64,000 nt of DNA from Myxococcota bacterium (lineage in GTDB: Bacteria; Myxococcota_A; UBA796; CAJQPC01), in NCBI GenBank assembly GCA_036229005.1, contig JAZAMN010000008.1, positions 32,001 to 96,000 on the forward strand. Reading direction: 5' to 3'. The position numbers and the translations under genes were made by a program. Under the pieces are notes generated by a model. The model worked only from the letters and a program-made list of their open reading frames with translations, did not search any database and was not told the origin of the DNA. This document shows positions 17,051 through 26,785 of this stretch, in pieces (the first letter of the stretch is position 1; every line of letters starts with the position of its first letter).

Positions 17051-17221
17051 GGGGTCCCCCTGGGTTGAGCCCGCAGCATAGGCAAGGCCCCAAAGCTCAG
17101 GGAAGAAAAGGGCGATCCAGCGCGCAAATCGTTCCCCAACATCCAGGATCAACGCCAGCTTACAGAAAATCGATCCCACCACAAGCGAGGTCACCCGCAG
17201 CGCAACCGAGCCCCGGGGGGC

Positions 17222-17839
17222 TCAGGGTTCAGGCCCCCGGAGCAGGCCCTCCAGCACGGCCTCGCCCATGCCCGGCGCGATGCTCGCCCAGTCCCGCTCG
17301 GGGCAGAGGGCGATCATGCGCAGCAGGCCCCCCAGCCAGGCGGTCAGGGCCAGGCTCGCACCCTCGACGTCCAGGTCGGCGGGGAGTTGGCCCCGCGCCA
17401 CGGCCAGGCGCATCAGCTCCTTCTCGTGGAAGTGCACCTTGTCGGCGTTGTCCCGGAGGCGGTCCAGGATGTCGGAGCCCTCGGTGGCCTCGACCCGCAG
17501 AAAGAGCACGCTGAGCAGCTTCTGCCGCTGGGGGTCGGTGGTGTTGGCGTGGGTGATCCGCGCCACCCAGGCCCGCAGGGTGCCCAGAGGGTCTTCGGCG
17601 CCCTCCTCGCGCATCTGCTCCAGCACCTCGGCCGGGAAGAGGTAGCGATCACAGAGGGCGTTGAACAGATCCGCCTTGTTGCGGAAGTGGCCGTAGATCG
17701 CACCCCGCGTCATGCCGGCCCGCTCAGCCACCTTGGTGAGACTGGGGCGGGCCACGCCCTCCTCCGCGAACACCTCCAGGGCGGCGTCCAGGAGGCTTTC
17801 GCGGGTCTGAAGAGCTTGTTCGGGGGTGCAACGTGCCAT
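17222..17839 (-). CDS. TetR/AcrR-family transcriptional regulator
   Basis: LLDAALEVFAEEG..SLTKVAERAGMTRGAIYGHFRNKADLF HTH; divergent from RND operon. Confidence 0.95.
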   Translation of the reverse strand: MARCTPEQALQTRESLLDAALEVFAEEGVARPSLTKVAERAGMTRGAIYGHFRNKADLFNALCDRYLFPAEVLEQMREEGAEDPLGTLRAWVARITHANTTDPQRQKLLSVLFLRVEATEGSDILDRLRDNADKVHFHEKELMRLAVARGQLPADLDVEGASLALTAWLGGLLRMIALCPERDWASIAPGMGEAVLEGLLRGPEP

Positions 17840-17865
17840 GGGCGGACGCCTACTCTATCAGATAC

Positions 17866-17883
17866 ATTCATACATGCATGAAT
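17866..17883. promoter_or_regulatory. putative TetR operator palindrome
   Basis: ATTCATACATGCATGAAT near-perfect palindrome in the AT-rich gap between tetR and the efflux operon. Confidence 0.7.
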
Positions 17884-17903
17884 AAAAGAGGCCTCCTCCA
17901 AGG

Positions 17904-19022
17904 CTGCTGACGCTCCTCGCCCTTGGCTGCGCCCCCGATCCCGCCCCCGCCGAGCGCCCCCCACCCCAGGTGGGTGTGCTCCACGCCCAGACCGAATCCC
18001 TGCCCGTCCAGCTCGAGCTGCCCGGCCGCGTCGAGGCCGTCCGCACCGCCCAGGTGCGCGCGCGCGTGACCGGCGTGGTGCTGGAGCGCAGCTTTGAAGA
18101 GGGCGAGTGGGTGGAGCAGGGCCAGGTGCTCTACCGCATCGACCCCGCCCCCATGCAGGCCGCGCTGGCACAGGCCAAGGCCCAGGTCTCCGTGGCCCAG
18201 GCCAACCTGCAGCTCGCCCAGAGCACCGCCCAGCGCCTGGAGCCCCTGGCGGGCACCAAGGCCGTGAGCGCCCAGACCCTGGATGACGCCCGGGCCGCCG
18301 AGGCCCAGGCCCGCGCCAGCCTGGAGCTCGCCAAGGCCCAGGCCCAGTCGGCGGCGCTGGATCTGCAGTACGCCACCGTGCGCGCGCCCATCTCCGGGCG
18401 CATCGGGCGGGGCCTGGTCACTGAGGGTGCCCTCGTCAGCGCCGGGGAGCTCACCCCCATGGCGAGCATCGTGCAGCTCGATCCGGTGTACGTGAACCTG
18501 TCGGTGCCCGTGGCGGAGCTGCGGGCACTGCGCGCCCAGTCCGGCACCTCCCTGGAGCAGGAGCAGGGCGCTCAGGTCACCCTCTCCGACGGCGACTGGC
18601 AGTACGCCCACACCGGCAGCCTGCTGTTCACCGACGTGAGCGTGGACCCCCAGACCGGCAGCACGCTGATCCGCGCCAGCTTCCCCAACCCCGACGCGGA
18701 GCTGCTCCCGGGCATGTTCGTGCGCGGCTCGGTCCAGGGGCAGCGCAAGGAGCTCGCGGTCTCCCTGCCCGAGGAGGTCATCCAGCGCTCCGGCGGCGAG
18801 TCCAGCGTGATCGTGGTGCAGGACGGCGTCGCCAAGCAGCGCAGCGTCCAGGTGCGCCGCACGGTCGGCACCCAGGTGGTGGTCCAGGGCCTGGAGTCCG
18901 GGGACGCCGTGGTGACCGACGGCTTCCAGAAGCTCACGGTGGGGCAGCCCGTCACCGCCGTCGAGGTCCAGGCCCAGGCCGAAGCCCCCCAGACGCCCAC
19001 CGTGGCGCAGGCGGAGGAGTAG
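17904..19022 (+). CDS. RND efflux periplasmic adaptor (AcrA/MexA-like); start uncertain
   Basis: ELPGRVEAVRTAQVRARVTG, VRAPISGRIG, FPNPDAELLPGMFV; in-frame LLTLLALGC lipobox from 17904 but no in-frame ATG. Confidence 0.9.
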   Translation: MLTLLALGCAPDPAPAERPPPQVGVLHAQTESLPVQLELPGRVEAVRTAQVRARVTGVVLERSFEEGEWVEQGQVLYRIDPAPMQAALAQAKAQVSVAQANLQLAQSTAQRLEPLAGTKAVSAQTLDDARAAEAQARASLELAKAQAQSAALDLQYATVRAPISGRIGRGLVTEGALVSAGELTPMASIVQLDPVYVNLSVPVAELRALRAQSGTSLEQEQGAQVTLSDGDWQYAHTGSLLFTDVSVDPQTGSTLIRASFPNPDAELLPGMFVRGSVQGQRKELAVSLPEEVIQRSGGESSVIVVQDGVAKQRSVQVRRTVGTQVVVQGLESGDAVVTDGFQKLTVGQPVTAVEVQAQAEAPQTPTVAQAEE

Positions 19023-22000
19023 ATGTCCCAGTTCTTCGCCAAGCGGCCCGTCTTCGCGTGGGTCGTGGCCATCTTCCTGGCCCTGGGTGGCCTGCTGGCG
19101 CTCTTTGAGCTGCCCGTCGCCCAGTACCCCACCGTGGCCCCGCCCACGGTCAACGTCTCCGCGACCTGGCCCGGCGCCTCCGCGGAGCTCATCGACGAGT
19201 CGGTGACCTCGGTGATCGAGCAGGAGCTCAACAGCGCCGAGAACATGCTCTACATGGAGAGCCAGAGCCAGGCGGGGCAGGCGCAGATCAGCGTCTCCTT
19301 CCAGCCCGGCACCGACCCCCAGCTCGCCACCGTCGACGTGCAGAACCTGATCAAGCGGGTCGAGGCCAAGCTGCCCGCCGCCGTGCAGTCCCAGGGCGTG
19401 CAGGTCACCCGCTCCAGCTCCTCCTTCCTGCTCATCGCCTCGCTGGTCTCCGCCGACGGCAGCATGAGCTCGGTCGAGCTGGGCGACTACATCAACCGCA
19501 GCGTGGCCAACGAGCTGCGCCGGGTCAACGGCGTCGGCGAGGTGCTGGTCTTCGGCACCGAGCACGCCATGCGCGTGTGGCTGGAGCCCGAGCGCCTGGT
19601 GGCCCACGACCTGACCGCCGCCGAGGTCAGCGCCGCCATCGCCGCCCAGAACCTCACCGTCTCCGCCGGCACCGTGGGCGCCCGCCCCCTGACCCCCGAG
19701 CAGCAGCTCTACGCGGACATCAACGTCCAGGGCCAGCTCGGCAGCGTCGAGGAGTTCAAGGACATCGTCGTGCGCGCCAACAGCGACGGCTCCCTGGTGC
19801 GCCTGGGGGATGTCGCCCGGGTCGAGCTGGGCGGCCAGAGCTACGCGACCACCGCCCGCACCAACGGCCAGCCCTCCGCCGCGATGGGCGTGCGCCTGTC
19901 GCCCACCGCCAACGCCCTCGCCACCGCCACCGCCGTCAAGGATCGCCTGGACGAGCTCTCCTACGGCTTCCCGGACGGCGTGGAGATCGTGCTGCCCTTC
20001 GACTCCTCGACCTTCATCGAGATCTCCATCGAGTCGGTGCTGCACACCCTGCTCGAGGCGATGGTCCTGGTGTTCCTGGTGATGTTCATCTTCCTCCAGA
20101 ACCTCCGGGCCACCCTCATCCCCACCATCGTGGTCCCCGTGGCCCTGCTGGGCTCGCTGCTGGTGCTCTACGCGCTGGGCTACTCCATCAACGTGCTCAC
20201 CATGTTCGGCATGGTGCTCGCCATCGGCATCCTGGTCGACGACGCCATCGTGGTCGTCGAGAACGTCGAGCGCATCATGGCCGAGGAGCACCTCTCCCCC
20301 CTGGCCGCCACCCAGAAGGCCATGGGTCAGATCCAGGGCGCCATCGTCGGCATCACCCTGGTGCTCGTGGTCGTGTTCCTGCCCATGGGCCTCTTCGGCG
20401 GCGCGGTGGGCGTGATCTACCGCCAGTTCTCCGTGACCATGGCCAGCTCCATCCTCTTCTCGGCGCTGCTGGCCCTCACCCTCACCCCGGCCCTGTGCGC
20501 CACCCTCCTCAAGCCCCACGACCCCGACGCGGAGAAGAAGGGCCTGTTCGCCTGGTTCGACCGCGTCGTGGAGCGCAGCACCGAGGGCTACGTGTCCTGG
20601 ACCGCCCGCTTCGTCCGGCGCCTGGGCCCGTCGATGGCCGTCTACCTGGGGCTCACCCTCCTGGCCGGCCTGGGCTACTCCCTGCTGCCTGGCGGGTTCC
20701 TGCCGGATGAGGATCAGGGCAGCGTGCAGACCCTGGTCCAACTCCCCTCCGGCGCGACCGGCAACCGCACCCAGGAGGTCGTGGGCGCCATCGAGGACAC
20801 GCTGGCCCAGCAGGACGGCGTCCGCGACTACCTGACCGTCCAGGGCTTCTCCCACATGGGCCGCGGCCAGAACGCCGCCATGGCCTTCACCCAGCTCGAA
20901 GACTGGGACGAGCGCGAGCTCTCCGCCCAGCAGATCGTCGGCTCCCTGAACGCGCAGCTCTCGCAGCTCCGCGACGCCCAGGCCTTCGCGGTCAACCCCC
21001 CGGCCATCCGGGGCATGGGCAACAGCAACGGCTTCGCGTTCCGCCTGGAGGACCGCAGCGGCCTGGGCCACGAGGCCCTGATCGACGCCCGCAACCAGCT
21101 CCTGGGCATGGCCGCCGAGTCCCCCGTGCTCGCCGGGGTGCGCCCCGAGGGCCTGGAGGACGCCGCCCGCCTGGAGCTGGACATCGACCGCGAGAAGGTC
21201 GTGGCGATGGGGGTCGACTACTCCGACATCTCCCGCGCCCTGAGCATCTCCGTCGGCTCCTCGTACATCGGCGACTTCCCCCGCGCGGGCCGGCAGCAGC
21301 AGGTGATCCTGCAGGCCGACGCCCCCGCCCGCATGCACGCCGAGGACCTCTCGGAGATCTACGTGCGCAACGACGCCGGCGCCCTGGTGTCCCTGGCCGA
21401 GCTGAGCACCCTGAGCTGGGGCAGCGGCCCCATCCAGCTCACCCGCTACAACGGCTACTCGGCGGTCAAGCTCACCGGGCAGCCCGCCGAGGGATACTCC
21501 ACCGGCGAGGCCATGGCCGAGATGGAGCGCCTGGCCGACCAGCTCCCCACCGGGTTCGGCTACGAGTGGACCGGGCAGTCCCTGCAGGAGGCCACCTCCT
21601 CCAACCAGGCGCCCATGCTCTTCGCCCTCTCGCTGCTGGTGGTCTTCCTGTGCCTGGCGGCCCTCTACGAGAGCTGGTCCATCCCCACCGCGGTGCTCCT
21701 GGTCGTCCCCCTGGGCGTGCTGGGCACCGTGATGGCCACCGGCCTGCGCGGCCTGAGCGATGACGTGTACTTCAAGGTGGGCCTGATCGCCGTGATCGGC
21801 CTGTCCGCCAAGAACGCCATCCTGATCGTGGAGTTCGCCAAGGACCTGCAGGAGCAGGGCATGGGACTCATCCAGTCCGCGATCGAGGCCGCCCGCCTGC
21901 GCTTCCGCCCCATCGTGATGACCTCCCTGGCCTTCTCGCTGGGGGTGGTGCCCCTGGTGATCTCCAGCGGCGCCGGCTCCGCCAGCCAGCGGGCCATCGG

Positions 22001-22148
22001 CACCGCGGTGTTCGGCGGCATGGTCGTGGGCAGCGTGCTCGCGGTCTTCCTGGTCCCCGTCTTCTACGTGGTGGTGCGCCGCATCGCGCCCCTGCAGGAG
22101 CCCACCCCCACCGCCTCCCCCGAGCTCACGGAGGGCGCCCATGCTTAG
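19023..22148 (+). CDS. RND efflux permease (AcrB/MexB-like)
   Basis: FFAKRPVFAWVVAI, GILVDDAIVVVENVER, GLSAKNAILIVEFA, RFRPIVMTSLAF. Confidence 0.97.
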   Translation: MSQFFAKRPVFAWVVAIFLALGGLLALFELPVAQYPTVAPPTVNVSATWPGASAELIDESVTSVIEQELNSAENMLYMESQSQAGQAQISVSFQPGTDPQLATVDVQNLIKRVEAKLPAAVQSQGVQVTRSSSSFLLIASLVSADGSMSSVELGDYINRSVANELRRVNGVGEVLVFGTEHAMRVWLEPERLVAHDLTAAEVSAAIAAQNLTVSAGTVGARPLTPEQQLYADINVQGQLGSVEEFKDIVVRANSDGSLVRLGDVARVELGGQSYATTARTNGQPSAAMGVRLSPTANALATATAVKDRLDELSYGFPDGVEIVLPFDSSTFIEISIESVLHTLLEAMVLVFLVMFIFLQNLRATLIPTIVVPVALLGSLLVLYALGYSINVLTMFGMVLAIGILVDDAIVVVENVERIMAEEHLSPLAATQKAMGQIQGAIVGITLVLVVVFLPMGLFGGAVGVIYRQFSVTMASSILFSALLALTLTPALCATLLKPHDPDAEKKGLFAWFDRVVERSTEGYVSWTARFVRRLGPSMAVYLGLTLLAGLGYSLLPGGFLPDEDQGSVQTLVQLPSGATGNRTQEVVGAIEDTLAQQDGVRDYLTVQGFSHMGRGQNAAMAFTQLEDWDERELSAQQIVGSLNAQLSQLRDAQAFAVNPPAIRGMGNSNGFAFRLEDRSGLGHEALIDARNQLLGMAAESPVLAGVRPEGLEDAARLELDIDREKVVAMGVDYSDISRALSISVGSSYIGDFPRAGRQQQVILQADAPARMHAEDLSEIYVRNDAGALVSLAELSTLSWGSGPIQLTRYNGYSAVKLTGQPAEGYSTGEAMAEMERLADQLPTGFGYEWTGQSLQEATSSNQAPMLFALSLLVVFLCLAALYESWSIPTAVLLVVPLGVLGTVMATGLRGLSDDVYFKVGLIAVIGLSAKNAILIVEFAKDLQEQGMGLIQSAIEAARLRFRPIVMTSLAFSLGVVPLVISSGAGSASQRAIGTAVFGGMVVGSVLAVFLVPVFYVVVRRIAPLQEPTPTASPELTEGAHA

Positions 22149-23547
22149 CGCGCTGTTGGGCCTGGCCTGCCTGGCCCCCAAGTACACCCCCCCCGCCGCC
22201 CCGGTGCCCACCGACTTCCCCCAGCAGGTGCAGGCCCAGAACGCCCAGGACCTGCCCCCCTGGCAAGAGGCCTTCACCGACCCCGAGCTGCAGGGCCTGA
22301 TCCAGACCGCCCTGGACAACAACCGCAGCCTGCGGACCACCCTGCTCAGCGTCGAGCAGGCCCGGGTGCAGCTCCGCCTGTCCTCCTCCGCGCTGGCGCC
22401 TCAGTTGGGGCTGGAGGCCGGCTTCACCTCGGTGGGGACGCCGGCCTCGGTGTCTGCTTTTGGAGAGGGCTACCAGGTGAACCAGTACCGCGCGGGGCCC
22501 ACCGTCTCGTGGCAGATGGACCTGTTCGGCCAGCAGCGCTACGCGCGGCGGGCCTCGGCTGTGGAGCTCTCGGCCGCCGGCGAGGACTGGCGTGCTGCGC
22601 GCATCTCGCTGATCGCCCAGGTGGCCAGCGCCGCCTTGCAGGAGCGGGTGCTGCTGCAGGAGCAGGCGCTGGCGGCGCAGGCTCTGGCTGACCGCCAGGA
22701 GTACGCCGAGCTGGTGCGCGTGAAGGTGGAGGCGGGCCTGGCCTCGGAGCTGGACCTGCACCAGGCCAACGCGCTGGTCTCCAGCGCCCAGGTCACCCAC
22801 GCCCAGCTCGAGCGCGGCGCCGCCCAGGCCCACAACGCGCTGGTGCTGCTGGTGGGCGCCCCCGTGGCCCCGCTGGAGGCCCTGGACCGGCCGGCCCAGG
22901 AGCTGGTACGCACCACCCTGGACCCCGGCCTGCCCTCGGAGCTGCTGCTCTCCCGGCCCGATCTGCGGGCCGCCGAGCAGCGCCTGATCGCGGCCCACGC
23001 CAACATCGGCGCGGCCCGGGCGGCCTTCTTCCCCAGCATCTCGCTGACCGGCGGGGTGAACTCCGCCTCGGCGTCGCTGGGGGGGCTCTTCCAGCAGGAC
23101 ACCCTGGCCTGGAGCTTCACGGGGCCCACGGTCTCTCTGCCCATCTTCGATCTGGGCGCCCGCCGGGCCAACCTGCGGGGCTCCAAGGTGGCCCGCGAGC
23201 AGGCGCTGGCCTCCTACGAGGCGACCATCCAGACCGCCTTCCGGGAGGTCGCGGACGTGCTGGTGGCCTGGCCCACCTACGAGGCCCAGGTGGCCGCGCA
23301 GCAGGAGCTGGCCCAGACCCAGAGCCTGCGGGTGGACCTGGCCGAGCAGCGCTACGAGGGCGGCGTCTCCGACTACCTGGAGGTGCTGGACGCCGAGCGC
23401 GAGCGCCTCACCGCCGAGCTCGCCCTGCGGGAGGCCGATCTGGCCCAGGCCCAGCTCGCCGTGAGCTGGTTCTTGGTGTTGGGTGGCGGCGCGGAGTCCG
23501 AGGTCGGGATCCCGGAGTGGGAGTCGGTGCGCAGCGAGCAGCCCTGA
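22141..23547 (+). CDS. RND efflux outer-membrane factor (OprM/NodT-like)
   Basis: Lipobox LGLAC, PGLPSELLLSRPDLRAAEQRLIAAHANIGAARAAFFPSISLTG, YLEVLDAER. Confidence 0.95.
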   Translation: MLSALLGLACLAPKYTPPAAPVPTDFPQQVQAQNAQDLPPWQEAFTDPELQGLIQTALDNNRSLRTTLLSVEQARVQLRLSSSALAPQLGLEAGFTSVGTPASVSAFGEGYQVNQYRAGPTVSWQMDLFGQQRYARRASAVELSAAGEDWRAARISLIAQVASAALQERVLLQEQALAAQALADRQEYAELVRVKVEAGLASELDLHQANALVSSAQVTHAQLERGAAQAHNALVLLVGAPVAPLEALDRPAQELVRTTLDPGLPSELLLSRPDLRAAEQRLIAAHANIGAARAAFFPSISLTGGVNSASASLGGLFQQDTLAWSFTGPTVSLPIFDLGARRANLRGSKVAREQALASYEATIQTAFREVADVLVAWPTYEAQVAAQQELAQTQSLRVDLAEQRYEGGVSDYLEVLDAERERLTAELALREADLAQAQLAVSWFLVLGGGAESEVGIPEWESVRSEQP

Positions 23548-23553
23548 AGGAGG

Positions 23554-23587
23554 GAACCCGGCGAGCGTTGTCCATCTCGCCGGGTTC
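23554..23587. terminator. 12-bp hairpin between convergent transcription units
   Basis: GAACCCGGCGAG-N10-CTCGCCGGGTTC; no U-tract, so terminator function is unproven. Confidence 0.55.
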
Positions 23588-23595
23588 GGGGGGCG

Positions 23596-23955
23596 CCATT
23601 TGTCCTGCAACAGCGGTGGAGCTCGATTGATTGAACGTCGATGTGTTCTCTACACCATCGGGGCACAGGTGGAGCCCCAAGCCGGGTACGAGCCGGCGGC
23701 TTCGACGAGTGTCTCGCTCCGGGGATTTGCAGGCAGCGCGGTTTGGATTCAGCTTCCAGCACGCAGTCTCTGTTTGATGCCCCTGTGTGACCCCGGGCTG
23801 TGATGGGCCCTGCGTCTACCAATTCCGTCACCCCCGCGTAGATGGTGCGGGGGGGAGGACTCGAACCTCCACGGGTCGGGGCTGAGCTTGTCGTTGTGGT
23901 TGAGCTTCCTCGCTGGGGGGGGTGGCCCTCATCGGGGCCAAAGACAAAGGGGAGT
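23596..23955 (-). ncRNA. putative structured ncRNA with two circularly permuted tRNA-like domains
   Basis: Domain 1 (23805-23882): GGAGG-TTCGAGT-CCTCC, CCCCCGC-A-CCA, TCTAC, GCGGGGG-TG-ACGGAATTGGTAGACGC. Domain 2 (23636-23707): GCCGG-CTCGTAC-CCGGC, TTGGGGC-T-CCA, CCTGT, GCCCCGA-TG-GTGT-AGAGA-ACAC. Flanked by long-range helices. Confidence 0.75.
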
Positions 23956-24699
23956 TCAGGGGATGAGGTAGCGCATCAGCCGGTCACCCAGAGCGGACTG
24001 CTCCACCTCCAGGTCGTTGGCCTGCTCCACGGCGAACTGGATGGCCCGCCGCACCCGCTCGATGCGCTCGAGCAGCTCACGCTTCTCGGGGGCCGGCAGC
24101 GCGGCGCTGGTGTCGGTCTGGACCCAGTGGCCCACGACCTTGTTCACGTCGACCAGCTCGGACTGGGCCGGGTGCTCGACGGTGGCCTGGACCAGGACGA
24201 TGGGCTCCTTCACCCGCTCGGTCTTGGCCCGCTTGATCACCTCCGCGCGGTACTGGCCGCTGGCGGCATCCAAGGTCCAGACCTTGGAGTTGTCCAGCAC
24301 GGGGAGCTGGCCCACCAGCTCCGCGAGGTCCTTGAGGCGCTTCTCCAGGGTGAGCAGCAGGGGGACGGGCACGTCCTCCAGCAGGGTCTGGCCGTCGACC
24401 ACCACGTCGGCCTTGGCCTGCATGTTGCCCACATCGCAGGTGGCCACCACGTTGATCCAGTCGGACATCAGGGTGCGGACGTCGCGGAGCAGCTCCGCGG
24501 CGTCGGCCTGGATGACCTTCTTCTCGTCGGGGTACAGCCCCTCGTTCTCGGTGGTCAGGGCCTCGAACTTCTTGTGCATCCCCACAAAGTCACCGGGCTT
24601 CTTGGCCTGGTGGTAGTGCTTGGAGAGCTGGGAGGTGGCGCGCTGCGCGGCGCCCTTGCGGATGCCCACCCACTGGTTGAGCTTGGTCTTGGTCGTCAT
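23956..24699 (-). CDS. conserved hypothetical protein (from memory resembles the DUF7873-type family; unverified)
   Basis: MTTKTKLNQW..AKADVVVDGQTLLEDVPVPLLLTLEKRL..LPVLD..ATVEHPAQ..VGHW..ALP..AVEQAN; strong GC3 bias. Confidence 0.85.
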   Translation of the reverse strand: MTTKTKLNQWVGIRKGAAQRATSQLSKHYHQAKKPGDFVGMHKKFEALTTENEGLYPDEKKVIQADAAELLRDVRTLMSDWINVVATCDVGNMQAKADVVVDGQTLLEDVPVPLLLTLEKRLKDLAELVGQLPVLDNSKVWTLDAASGQYRAEVIKRAKTERVKEPIVLVQATVEHPAQSELVDVNKVVGHWVQTDTSAALPAPEKRELLERIERVRRAIQFAVEQANDLEVEQSALGDRLMRYLIP

Positions 24700-24787
24700 T
24701 TCTCTTGCCTGTGTTCTGGGCAGGAGTAGTCCCCGGCTTCGGGGGGACCAGATGCGACACGGATCCGTCACAAATGGAGCTTGAAGC

Positions 24788-26785
24788 TCATGGTTGGGCC
24801 ACCGCCGCCTGCAGCTCCACGACCTCCCACGCGCCGGGGGCGGTCTCGGTCACGACACGCAGCACCTCGCCGTCGCTGACGATGTCGCGTACCCGACCTC
24901 CGAGGGGCTCACAGCCCGAGGCGGTGCAGAGCTGATCCTGGACCACCCACGCAGCCTCTCCTCCCCAGAACACGGGGGGGTGCTGCAGGGAGAGCGCGGG
25001 GGAGGCGGCCAGGATCTCGGGGGAGGACCAGCTCTCGCCGCCGTCGGTGGAGGTGACGCGCAGGAGCTGGGTGGATTCGTCGCCGCGGCTGAGGACCAGC
25101 AGCTCCAGGGCGCCGTCGCGCGCCTGGAGGGTGGGCCAGGCCAGGCGCCAACTGCCGGAGAGGGGCTGGGCGTCGGCGAGATCGACGGGCTGGGTGCCCT
25201 CGAAGACCCAGTCGCTGCCCTGCCAGTGGCCGGTCTGGAGGTAGACGCGGCGGCGGTCGCGGGCCTCGTTGTTGGGGGGGCTGGCGACCAGGGGGAGCAG
25301 GACGCGGCCGTCGTCCAGGAGCGCGGCGCTGTGGAGCTCGGGGTAGAGCAGGCCGTCGTCGGTGTTGACGCCCTGGACCCAGTCGCCGCCCTCCAGGCAG
25401 GCGTGGCGGATGGCGACGGAGTTGTCGATGCCGGCGCTGGCGATGTCGTCGGGGTTGTAGGGGTAGCTCAGGCAGAGCCGGCCCTGGGCGTCGGTGGCCA
25501 TCGCGGGGCGCCAGAAGGGGCCGACCTCGGCCTCGGGAGCGGGGAGCTCGGAGACCAGGGCGCCGTCCTGGAGCAGGGCGCAGCGGGGGACCCAAGGCAG
25601 GGTGATGTCCCAGTCGACCAGCTCGCGCCAGCACACCGCCTGCTGGCCGCCGAGCTCCAGGCCGACGGGGGCCTCGGCGGCGCGGGAGTCGGGGTCGGAG
25701 AGCTGCAGATCGCCCACGAACACGGCGCTGCGGTGGGCGGGATCGTCGGTCAGAAAGCGCTCTTGAAGCGCCGGAATCCGCGATGTGCGGGAGACGCCCT
25801 GGCGGGGGGACTCGGGGGCGGACTCCATGGCCTCGCTGATGGGGAGGCCCTCGGCCCAGGGCAGGTCCACGCCGGCCAGCGCGGCGATGGTGGGGGCGAC
25901 ATCCTGCAGGGCCCAGGGCCCCTCGACCACCTTCCCTGCGGGCACGCCGGGGCCGATCAGCAAGAGGGGGATGTCGCGGTCGCCGGTGGAGCTGTTGCCG
26001 TGGTTGCGCCAATACTCCTCTTCGGTGGAGTAGTCCGAGCGGTGGCGGCCGTGGTCGGAGGTCACGACCAGCAGGGTGTTCCCGGCGTAGAAGGGGTCGA
26101 GCTGGAGCTGCTCCCAGAGGGTGACCAGGGGGGCGTCCACGTCCTCGATGGCCTTGAGGTAGCCGTCCAGCTCGGGGGCGTAGTGGCCGGTGCGGTCCAC
26201 CGCCTTGAGGTTCACCATCACGTAGGTGGGGTGCTGCTCGCTCAGCAGGCGCGAGAGCTGGGCGAAGGCCGGGGCGTCCTCTCCGGCGGGCTGGATGGAG
26301 CCGGGCTCTTCGGGCACGAAGGCCCACTCGGCGCCCAGAGTCTGCCCGCCTTCGGGGTGCAGGGACCAGGTCATGGGCTCGATCAGCGACTGGTTGGCCA
26401 GCACCATGGCCTGCTCGTCGGGGTGCTGGGCGCGCGCGGCCTCGATCCAGGTGGGCACGAGGGGCCGGTAGCTGCCCGCCCCGAAGTCGTTGGCGAAGTT
26501 CGCCAGGGGCGTGCGGCGCCCGGTCATCAAGATCGCGTGGGCCGGCGCGGTCGTGGTCGTCCCGTAGTTGCGCACCCCCTGGACCAGCGTGCCCTGGGGG
26601 ACCAGCAGCTCGTGGATCAGGGGCAGGCTCTCCTTCCCGGGCAGGCCCGTCAGCTCGCTGCGGGTCTCGGAGAAGCCGTCGTCGGTGCGGATCCCGTCGA
26701 TGACCACCACGATCACGTTCAGCGGGGGCTCGGTGGCGGTGCGGCAGCCGCTCAGGGACAGCAGCAAAGGGAGGGTCGCGAGCAT
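24788..26785 (-). CDS. alkaline phosphatase/sulfatase-superfamily lipoprotein
   Basis: LSLSGC lipobox; VIVVVIDGIR, TTTAPAH, VDRTGH, VVTSDHGR, DVAPTIA. Confidence 0.8.
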   Translation of the reverse strand: MLATLPLLLSLSGCRTATEPPLNVIVVVIDGIRTDDGFSETRSELTGLPGKESLPLIHELLVPQGTLVQGVRNYGTTTTAPAHAILMTGRRTPLANFANDFGAGSYRPLVPTWIEAARAQHPDEQAMVLANQSLIEPMTWSLHPEGGQTLGAEWAFVPEEPGSIQPAGEDAPAFAQLSRLLSEQHPTYVMVNLKAVDRTGHYAPELDGYLKAIEDVDAPLVTLWEQLQLDPFYAGNTLLVVTSDHGRHRSDYSTEEEYWRNHGNSSTGDRDIPLLLIGPGVPAGKVVEGPWALQDVAPTIAALAGVDLPWAEGLPISEAMESAPESPRQGVSRTSRIPALQERFLTDDPAHRSAVFVGDLQLSDPDSRAAEAPVGLELGGQQAVCWRELVDWDITLPWVPRCALLQDGALVSELPAPEAEVGPFWRPAMATDAQGRLCLSYPYNPDDIASAGIDNSVAIRHACLEGGDWVQGVNTDDGLLYPELHSAALLDDGRVLLPLVASPPNNEARDRRRVYLQTGHWQGSDWVFEGTQPVDLADAQPLSGSWRLAWPTLQARDGALELLVLSRGDESTQLLRVTSTDGGESWSSPEILAASPALSLQHPPVFWGGEAAWVVQDQLCTASGCEPLGGRVRDIVSDGEVLRVVTETAPGAWEVVELQAAVAQP

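Follow-up and report, generated by a model that had tools for sequence, protein, structure and literature searches.

Positions 23733-23604 on the minus strand form the second of two tRNA-like heads in a conserved, uncatalogued RNA of ~360 nt, which lies directly 3' of a DUF7873 gene in a layout that recurs downstream of homologous loci. That this stretch has the structure described below and belongs to a DUF7873-linked family of two-headed RNAs is regarded as practically certain. In the reading favoured here, to which we assign a probability of about 0.5, the RNA is likely part of a DUF7873 particle that would present tRNA-like ends as decoys or mimics to host tRNA-binding proteins. The window denotes throughout the whole stretch of 64,000 nucleotides that was analysed.

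Architecture and fold of the RNA in the window

The RNA occupies an intergenic gap behind the intact DUF7873 gene, convergent with an efflux operon. It consists, in this order, of repeat array A, a permuted tRNA head (head 1), repeat array B, a long stem with head 2, and an end hairpin. The features are as follows.

23956..24699, minus strand: DUF7873 gene (PF25283), 247 aa, intact, Pfam E 3.9e-72; likely protein partner
23882..23911, minus strand: repeat array A, about four 6-nt units with conserved U-N-A, two units degenerate in the window
23811..23870, minus strand: head 1, permuted tRNA-Leu-like domain (descriptor, model match, likeness to host tRNA-Leu)
23870-23854, minus strand: T arm of head 1
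23853-23831, minus strand: acceptor hairpin of head 1 with A73-CCA
23830-23811, minus strand: D arm of head 1
23810-23795, minus strand: extra hairpin after D arm 1, pair probability 0.98
23793-23779, minus strand: 3' strand of stem P1, pairing with 23882-23873, pair probabilities 0.1-0.5
23748..23776, minus strand: repeat array B between the two arms, degenerate in the window
23593..23739, minus strand: long stem of arm 2 (fold and family helices)
23739-23735/23597-23593, minus strand: outer helix of arm 2
23733-23727/23610-23604, minus strand: helix P3 of arm 2
23720-23716/23622-23618, minus strand: helix P4 of arm 2
23636..23707, minus strand: head 2 (sequence, fold, model match)
23707-23702/23641-23636, minus strand: anticodon-position stem of head 2, 6 bp
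23697-23681, minus strand: T arm of head 2, with C54 and U58
23680-23674/23664-23658, minus strand: acceptor stem of head 2, 7 bp
23673 and 23672-23670, minus strand: U73 and CCA of head 2
23655-23643, minus strand: D arm of head 2, 5-nt loop without GG
23554..23587, minus strand: end hairpin, 12 bp, GGACA-containing loop, pair probability 1.0, conserved in the family

The preliminary description of this DNA had proposed a cloverleaf resting on two further helices. The quoted sequence is present on the minus strand at 23733-23604, and both the minimum free energy fold and the centroid fold of this segment reproduce the proposal exactly: CCTGCAA/TTGCAGG (P3) and GGAGC/GCTCC (P4) are followed by a 6-bp stem in the anticodon position, a T arm, a 7-bp acceptor hairpin and a 4-bp D stem, with U-CCA inside the 9-nt acceptor loop. 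The loops are degenerate as described, the T loop being devoid of TTC and the D loop of GG. Folded in isolation, the segment is moderately more stable than chance (z -2.21; 4 of 200 shuffles equal it). In the whole RNA its helices form with pair probabilities of 0.96 (P3), 0.95 (P4), 0.84 (anticodon position), 0.82 (T arm), 0.91 (acceptor) and 0.85 (D stem), and the two-head fold lies only 1.5 kcal/mol above the free minimum. When the stem strands of arm 2 were exchanged, 4 of 20 foreign partners paired with those of the window as well as their own partner; across the family the cognate strands gave the best duplex in 50 of 95 loci.

No sigma-70 promoter was detected by a consensus scan, and TANNNT occurs upstream in only 18 of the 52 loci that carry GRAG just 5' of array A. 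Rfam (gathering and E-value thresholds) and ARAGORN returned nothing relevant in the window.

Conservation and identity of the two heads

A genome scan with the single window protein found no relatives; an alignment-based scan did. Using a query alignment of 51 proteins, the best 80 of 587 confirmed genomic loci and the best 80 of 164 viral loci were collected. Of 152 non-redundant loci, a descriptor search of up to 600 nt past the stop codon located two strong heads in 111 and a single one in 28, leaving 13 without any, as compared to two heads in 0/152 antisense, 0/149 upstream and 0/142 further downstream controls. The feature counts given below refer to 115 two-head loci, window included (117 unique loci minus the mis-registered L105 and L110). 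Since the descriptor was biased towards canonical T and D loops, the independent observations on the tRNA-Leu likeness of head 1 are limited to A73, the Levitt pair and the type of D arm.

A covariance model, R1, was built from arm 2 of 43 diverse short-loop homologues with the window excluded. It matches the window at 23759-23592 on the minus strand over its full length (model positions 1-176) with 41.8 bits and an E-value of 1.4e-9, a score near the bottom of the family range (86/169 loci searched). Head 1 scores 27 bits and the best match outside the RNA 9 bits. In the 6.4-Mb genome arm 2 of the window ranks first, followed by tandem tRNA genes. Such genes (e.g. G000 C6:96056-96198) mimic a permuted head when adjacent and produce false matches to YrlA (37.8 bits) as well as to R1, so that only matches spanning the long stem should count.

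RNAalifold on the 43 homologues recovers the T, acceptor and D stems together with two long-stem helices. The expectation of covariation in homologous loci is borne out, as two-sided changes were found in 28 of 29 consensus pairs. This compensatory change, together with the pairing of acceptor strands inside each head described below, upholds the earlier proposal of structural selection, rather than chance or a recent duplication, and fold and homologues jointly confirm that the domain is tRNA-like and circularly permuted, sits on a long stem and shares the topology of YrlA. Paired cells amount to 94.7% in the arm 2 alignment, versus 63% in shuffles and 40-45% in slid controls. The choice of loci worked in favour of the T, acceptor and D stems but had no such effect on the two long-stem helices; the family counterparts of P3 and P4 are 92% and 88% paired, with two-sided changes at every pair. 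The anticodon-position stem, six pairs long in the window, has at least four pairs in 69 of 115 loci versus 8% with foreign strands.

Two other ways of assembling a tRNA from this RNA were rejected. Acceptor strands pair within heads (6.9 of 7 positions) rather than across them (4.0 of 7), which rules out a non-permuted tRNA assembled from both heads. A canonical or split/permuted tRNA gene is excluded likewise, as no 7-nt anticodon loop is recoverable and the anticodon-position stem opens into the long stem.

The acceptor ends are well conserved. C74 is found in 87 of 115 loci in head 1 and 108 in head 2, G+1 in 94 and 102, and U at position -1 in 55 and 76; CCA itself is encoded in less than half of the heads (45/115 and 54/115). 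The length of the acceptor loop is unconstrained and varies from 4 to 83 nt across loci. The Levitt pair covaries between A15:U48 and G15:C48. A GG(A/C/T)-type motif occupies the loop of the end hairpin in 115 of 127 loci.

Head 1 resembles tRNA-Leu. Compared with 347 reference tRNAs, its D arm comes closest to Leu in 113.5 of 115 loci; in controls, 43 of 49 tRNA-Leu D arms were assigned to Leu, as were 7.5 of 298 non-Leu ones. A73 and A15:U48 occur together in 91 of 115 loci, and the tRNA-Leu elements A73, A14, A15:U48, G18G19 and U54:A58 are all found in head 1, the last two in loops that the descriptor favoured. In the window, the D and T arms of head 1 are near-identical to those of the host tRNA-Leu(GAG/TAG). 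The short-loop Leu type prevails in actinobacterial loci (30/31) and the long-arm type in other bacterial loci (18/24). With both types of bacterial tRNA-Leu, I and II, as these are defined in the accessible parts of PMC6614811, head 1 has in common the D and T arms as well as A73 and A15:U48. Unlike tRNA-Leu, head 1 is permuted, has no anticodon loop and is part of a larger RNA. Ancestry could account for part of its Leu likeness. Across the family, the D arms of head 2 are of mixed type, position 73 is U or G and G3:U70 is rare; head 2 therefore carries no fixed amino-acid identity.

Eight loci (L042, L049, L060, L015, L018, L144, L167 and L169) are single-head variants in which head 1 is lost or replaced by a plain hairpin, with arrays, head 2 and end hairpin retained. 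When one head is lost, head 2 is the survivor. As head 1 is missing in several lineages, Leu mimicry is dispensable.

Repeat arrays, protein and gene–RNA linkage

Chains of at least three 6-nt units were found in 86 of 94 loci versus 102 of 1880 shuffles, and in the aligned arrays U and A are fixed every six bases; arrays A and B of the window are eroded. Phase slips speak against a coding function, which was rejected: 36 of 269 steps in array A are out of phase (5, 7 or 13 nt), and 1-nt insertions occur in 4 of 40 aligned rows. A conserved pairing of array A with array B, possible in single sequences, finds no consensus support, as cognate arrays paired best in 15 of 91 loci, covarying columns fell into inconsistent registers and RNAalifold returned no helix. 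The simplest reading of the arrays is that they are single-stranded protein sites. In a Klebsiella jumbo phage (L166) and in Ralstonia phage RSL1 (L168) a divergent DUF7873 is accompanied by altered repeat units, ending for example in CGU in RSL1, hinting at co-evolving specificity. A tiny frame, MSFKLHL, at 24768-24791 on the minus strand of the window overlaps the upstream stop codon 5' of the DUF7873 gene and resembles the array hexamers; it could be an autoregulatory site or chance.

DUF7873 comprises 2,688 clusters at 50% identity and is present in 75 deposited phage records. Of the loci examined, 31 of 80 viral but 2 of 80 cellular ones are situated within tRNA clusters, and a PTH2-type peptidyl-tRNA hydrolase gene is located nearby in five viral loci (e.g. 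L097:1350-1775). The predicted structure (pLDDT 82) shows an elongated bundle of helices together with long beta-hairpins, and the invariant polar residues T173, H176, P177 and Q179 are placed near the tip of one of the long hairpins. The protein is near neutral (median net charge -2). Of 15 near-invariant K/R columns the window protein retains 8; how many basic columns a protein retains does not follow the quality of its arrays (rho 0.14, p 0.08, n 155). Searched by fold, PDB (Foldseek) and BFVD yielded neither a clear match nor a known RNA-binding or transferase fold, PHROGs and NCBIfam profiles held nothing for DUF7873, and no match to TROVE was seen in Pfam or the fold searches. A third conserved gene was not found at DUF7873 loci, nor a conserved defence, toxin or biosynthetic neighbour. 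Our literature search retrieved no paper on DUF7873.

Gene and RNA occur together. Among 141 Streptomyces genomes, 75 carry a DUF7873 gene and all 75 of these the RNA, and where a second gene is present, in two genomes, so is a second RNA. Among the 66 genomes lacking the gene are two with 5'-truncated relics and two with short partial, tandem-tRNA-like matches (model positions 63-126). In the 61 genomes around this one, full-length RNA was detected only here (G000) and in G051, both with an intact gene. These figures are tallies rather than a test, since kin are not independent. The gene, a single copy in this genome, is in two pieces in G047 (C89, L003/L004), G172 and G203; the RNA is retained in G172 and G203, and no full RNA was found beside the split gene of G047. 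In Herpetosiphon the RNA is kept ~1.8 Mb from the gene and in L043 it lies on the opposite strand, which indicates that it can act in trans. It is located behind inserted genes in L008 and L037 and is duplicated in the latter. Taken together, the genomic association suggests that RNA and DUF7873 probably form a particle.

The DUF7873 locus was not found in 21 same-family genomes searched. In three genomes of the same genus, the block at ~17200-24800 of the window (TetR/RND efflux genes, RNA and DUF7873) was absent downstream of the sulfatase-like gene, relative to which genomes it looks inserted. In G003 the sulfatase-like gene is directly followed by htpG, which suggests an insertion in the window lineage.

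Possible mode of action and alternative readings

From the architecture, the covariation, the gene–RNA linkage and the Leu likeness of head 1, all of which are observed, we infer a sequence of four steps. First, a DUF7873 oligomer would bind the single-stranded U-N-A hexamer arrays and hold both arms. Second, host RNase P would cut 5' of each acceptor stem, and 3' trimming and CCA addition, as in M. smegmatis YrlA, would open the loops, giving a pieced RNA with two CCA ends. Third, LeuRS may recognise and possibly charge head 1, whereas head 2, lacking an amino-acid identity, would serve as a generic acceptor end. Fourth, as the heads have no anticodons, they would not decode, and may instead soak up or redirect proteins acting on tRNA ends or elbows. 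The individual parts differ in strength. Opening of the heads by RNase P and CCA addition is somewhat favoured by analogy to YrlA, and the strict 7-bp acceptors, C74 and the U at -1 point in the same direction. In the accessible parts of Chen et al. (PMC4201824), cutting by RNase P and the addition of CCA are demonstrated for M. smegmatis YrlA and tied to the 7-bp stem. Leucylation of head 1 by LeuRS is conceivable from its sequence, at slightly under even odds. It is plausible because bacterial Leu identity resides in A73, A14, A15:U48 and the elbow, not in the anticodon, and Streptomyces LeuRS charges short-loop tRNA-Leu, according to the accessible parts of PMC9976931 and PMC6614811. The decoy role as such is tentative and well below even odds. 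The favoured reading is weakened by the lack of conserved defence or toxin neighbours, by a near-neutral protein that resembles no known RNA-binding fold, by basic columns that do not vary with the arrays, by the minority of heads that encode CCA and by the lineages that do without head 1. In the window, with C54, U58 and no GG in head 2, a canonical elbow probably cannot form; as the elbow contacts would be lost, this head 2 probably works at most as an acceptor/T minihelix.

The RNA defines a large tRNA-mimic family without Ro60, in which the permuted head of YrlA is doubled and one head bears leucine identity elements; to our knowledge, bacterial tRNA mimics are few, namely tmRNA and YrlA. 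It also provides a testable function class for an unannotated protein family. Lineages with one head, lineages with two, and the window copy, whose second head has lost its elbow and kept its acceptor end, form a natural experiment that can show which features of a tRNA mimic count. A more far-reaching version, which we consider doubtful, is a new RNP class across bacterial phyla and phages: an oligomer that reads 6-nt repeats and displays two host-processed heads, one leucylated by LeuRS and the other uncharged, and that would work outside decoding as aminoacyl carrier or as decoy against tRNA-targeting defence, with DIP1984/DUF6847 and its own repeat RNAs as a sister system.

The first alternative concerns the window copy only and holds that the family is functional while this member is decaying under relaxed selection. 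In head 2 of the family U54 is present in 114 and A58 in 111 of 115 loci, and the D-loop GG in 90; the window head 2 has lost the GG and is the only one of the 115 with both C54 and U58. The T-loop degeneracy thus belongs to the window copy and is not a family trait. Decay would also fit the low R1 score, the degenerate arrays, the 8 of 15 basic columns kept and the absence of the locus from the 21 same-family genomes. Still, the gene is intact and every helix is kept despite the divergent sequence. Head 2 retains its 7-bp acceptor stem, U73-CCA, G+1, the U at -1 and U8, head 1 and the end hairpin are undamaged, GG is also absent from head 2 in 25 of 115 loci, and the T loop of L083 is degenerate in its only head. 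Decay is rated as rather unlikely; lineage divergence may account for the degeneracy as well.

A tether of the Y RNA type is unlikely. In this reading, which draws on the resemblance to YrlA (RF02553), DUF7873 would stand in for Ro60, the loops of the heads would remain unopened, and the RNA would connect the protein with an effector, for example PNPase. In both RNAs a T arm, an acceptor hairpin and a D arm make up a permuted head, the anticodon stem runs into a long stem, and an anticodon is lacking; the overall shape agrees with that of YrlA in the accessible parts of 10.1101/312249 and PMC4201824, and the 7-bp acceptor is of the type that in M. smegmatis is a substrate of RNase P and receives CCA. 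Moreover, RF02553 scores 22-23 bits in two of five homologous loci, far below its cut-off of 69 bits, and 5 of 160 loci have a TROVE gene no more than ~5 kb away, the distance for YrlA being typically within 4 kb. Yet no TROVE (PF05731) gene was found in this genome, which is 94% complete, DUF7873 has no TROVE match, and no more than 11 of 120 loci bear the Rsr motif GNCGAAN0-1G on the 5' strand of the stem; its sole match in the window is not in the outer stem but falls across the anticodon stem and the variable loop. In head 2 the D stem is variable, not near-invariant, and the conserved acceptor ends point to opened loops. Unlike YrlA, the RNA measures ~360 nt, usually has two heads with variable D and T stems, carries hexamer arrays, an end hairpin and a Leu-like head 1, and is partnered with DUF7873, not Ro60. 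Identity with YrlA or Y RNA is ruled out by the missing Ro60, the scarce Rsr motif and the low RF02553 scores. The Y RNA membership suggested by the preliminary description does not hold: its proposed Infernal check with RF02553 gave no match at the locus at E-values up to 10, and what had been taken for a free-standing Y-like RNA is one arm of a larger, two-headed one.

Alternatively, head 1 could be a leucyl donor: it would be charged by LeuRS, and DUF7873 or a recruited factor would transfer leucine to an acceptor, possibly on head 2. The Leu-type D arm, A73 and A15:U48 across phyla and in both Leu types, as well as the invariant residues near the hairpin tip of DUF7873, would suit this function. 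As several lineages exchange head 1 for a plain hairpin while gene and head 2 persist, and neither a transferase fold nor conserved biosynthetic neighbours are found, it is judged quite improbable.

In two-piece tmRNA the 3' half, with acceptor and CCA, is encoded ahead of a variable spacer, which the 5' half follows, and the molecule is likely opened by RNase P and 3' processing. The order of T arm, CCA, spacer and D arm is the same here, phage copies lie in tRNA clusters, and in one frame the arrays alternate between polar and hydrophobic codons; DUF7873 might accordingly be imagined as an SmpB-like partner in ribosome rescue with the hexamer arrays as message. This is very improbable, as G3:U70 occurs in 0 of 115 heads 1 and 8 of 115 heads 2 (C3-G70 in head 2 of the window), the array phase slips, and the host has its own normal tmRNA elsewhere in the genome. 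In contrast to two-piece tmRNA, both heads have full D arms. Identity with tmRNA is excluded by the scarcity of G3:U70, the lack of a conserved tag frame and the negative ARAGORN and Rfam results at the locus. Finally, a cis-acting 3' UTR element steering processing or stability of the DUF7873 mRNA would explain why the RNA directly follows the stop codon in most loci, and is scarcely credible in view of the unlinked, opposite-strand, displaced and duplicated copies described above.

In the literature covered, which includes subscription journals thinly, no paper describing this RNA was found; it is not described in the accessible parts of PMC7824862 and PMC7609411, and the supplement of PMC4201824 may list some of the loci as YrlA candidates.

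A weak structural neighbour of DUF7873 is DIP1984/DUF6847 (PF20935; PDB 3kdq via sequence search), with a TM-score of 0.44-0.49 by query and 0.60-0.66 by target; 3kdq is absent from the listed fold-search matches of DUF7873. Comparison of the profiles by hhalign gave a probability of 1.3% (E 0.04); the two are at most candidate homologues. DIP1984/DUF6847 is a shorter protein with a different RNA motif. In L213-L230 a conserved non-coding element of ~200 nt is located 3' of the DUF6847/DIP1984 genes, for which Rfam returned no match in the three loci scanned. It features GGTAG close to its 5' end, GCAY in short repeats and, on the 3' side, a GAGGGYGG-type motif (15/16 loci versus 1/16 upstream controls), and in L213 and L214 it includes a T-arm hairpin. 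DUF6847/DIP1984 and this element are possibly a second uncatalogued protein–RNA pair.
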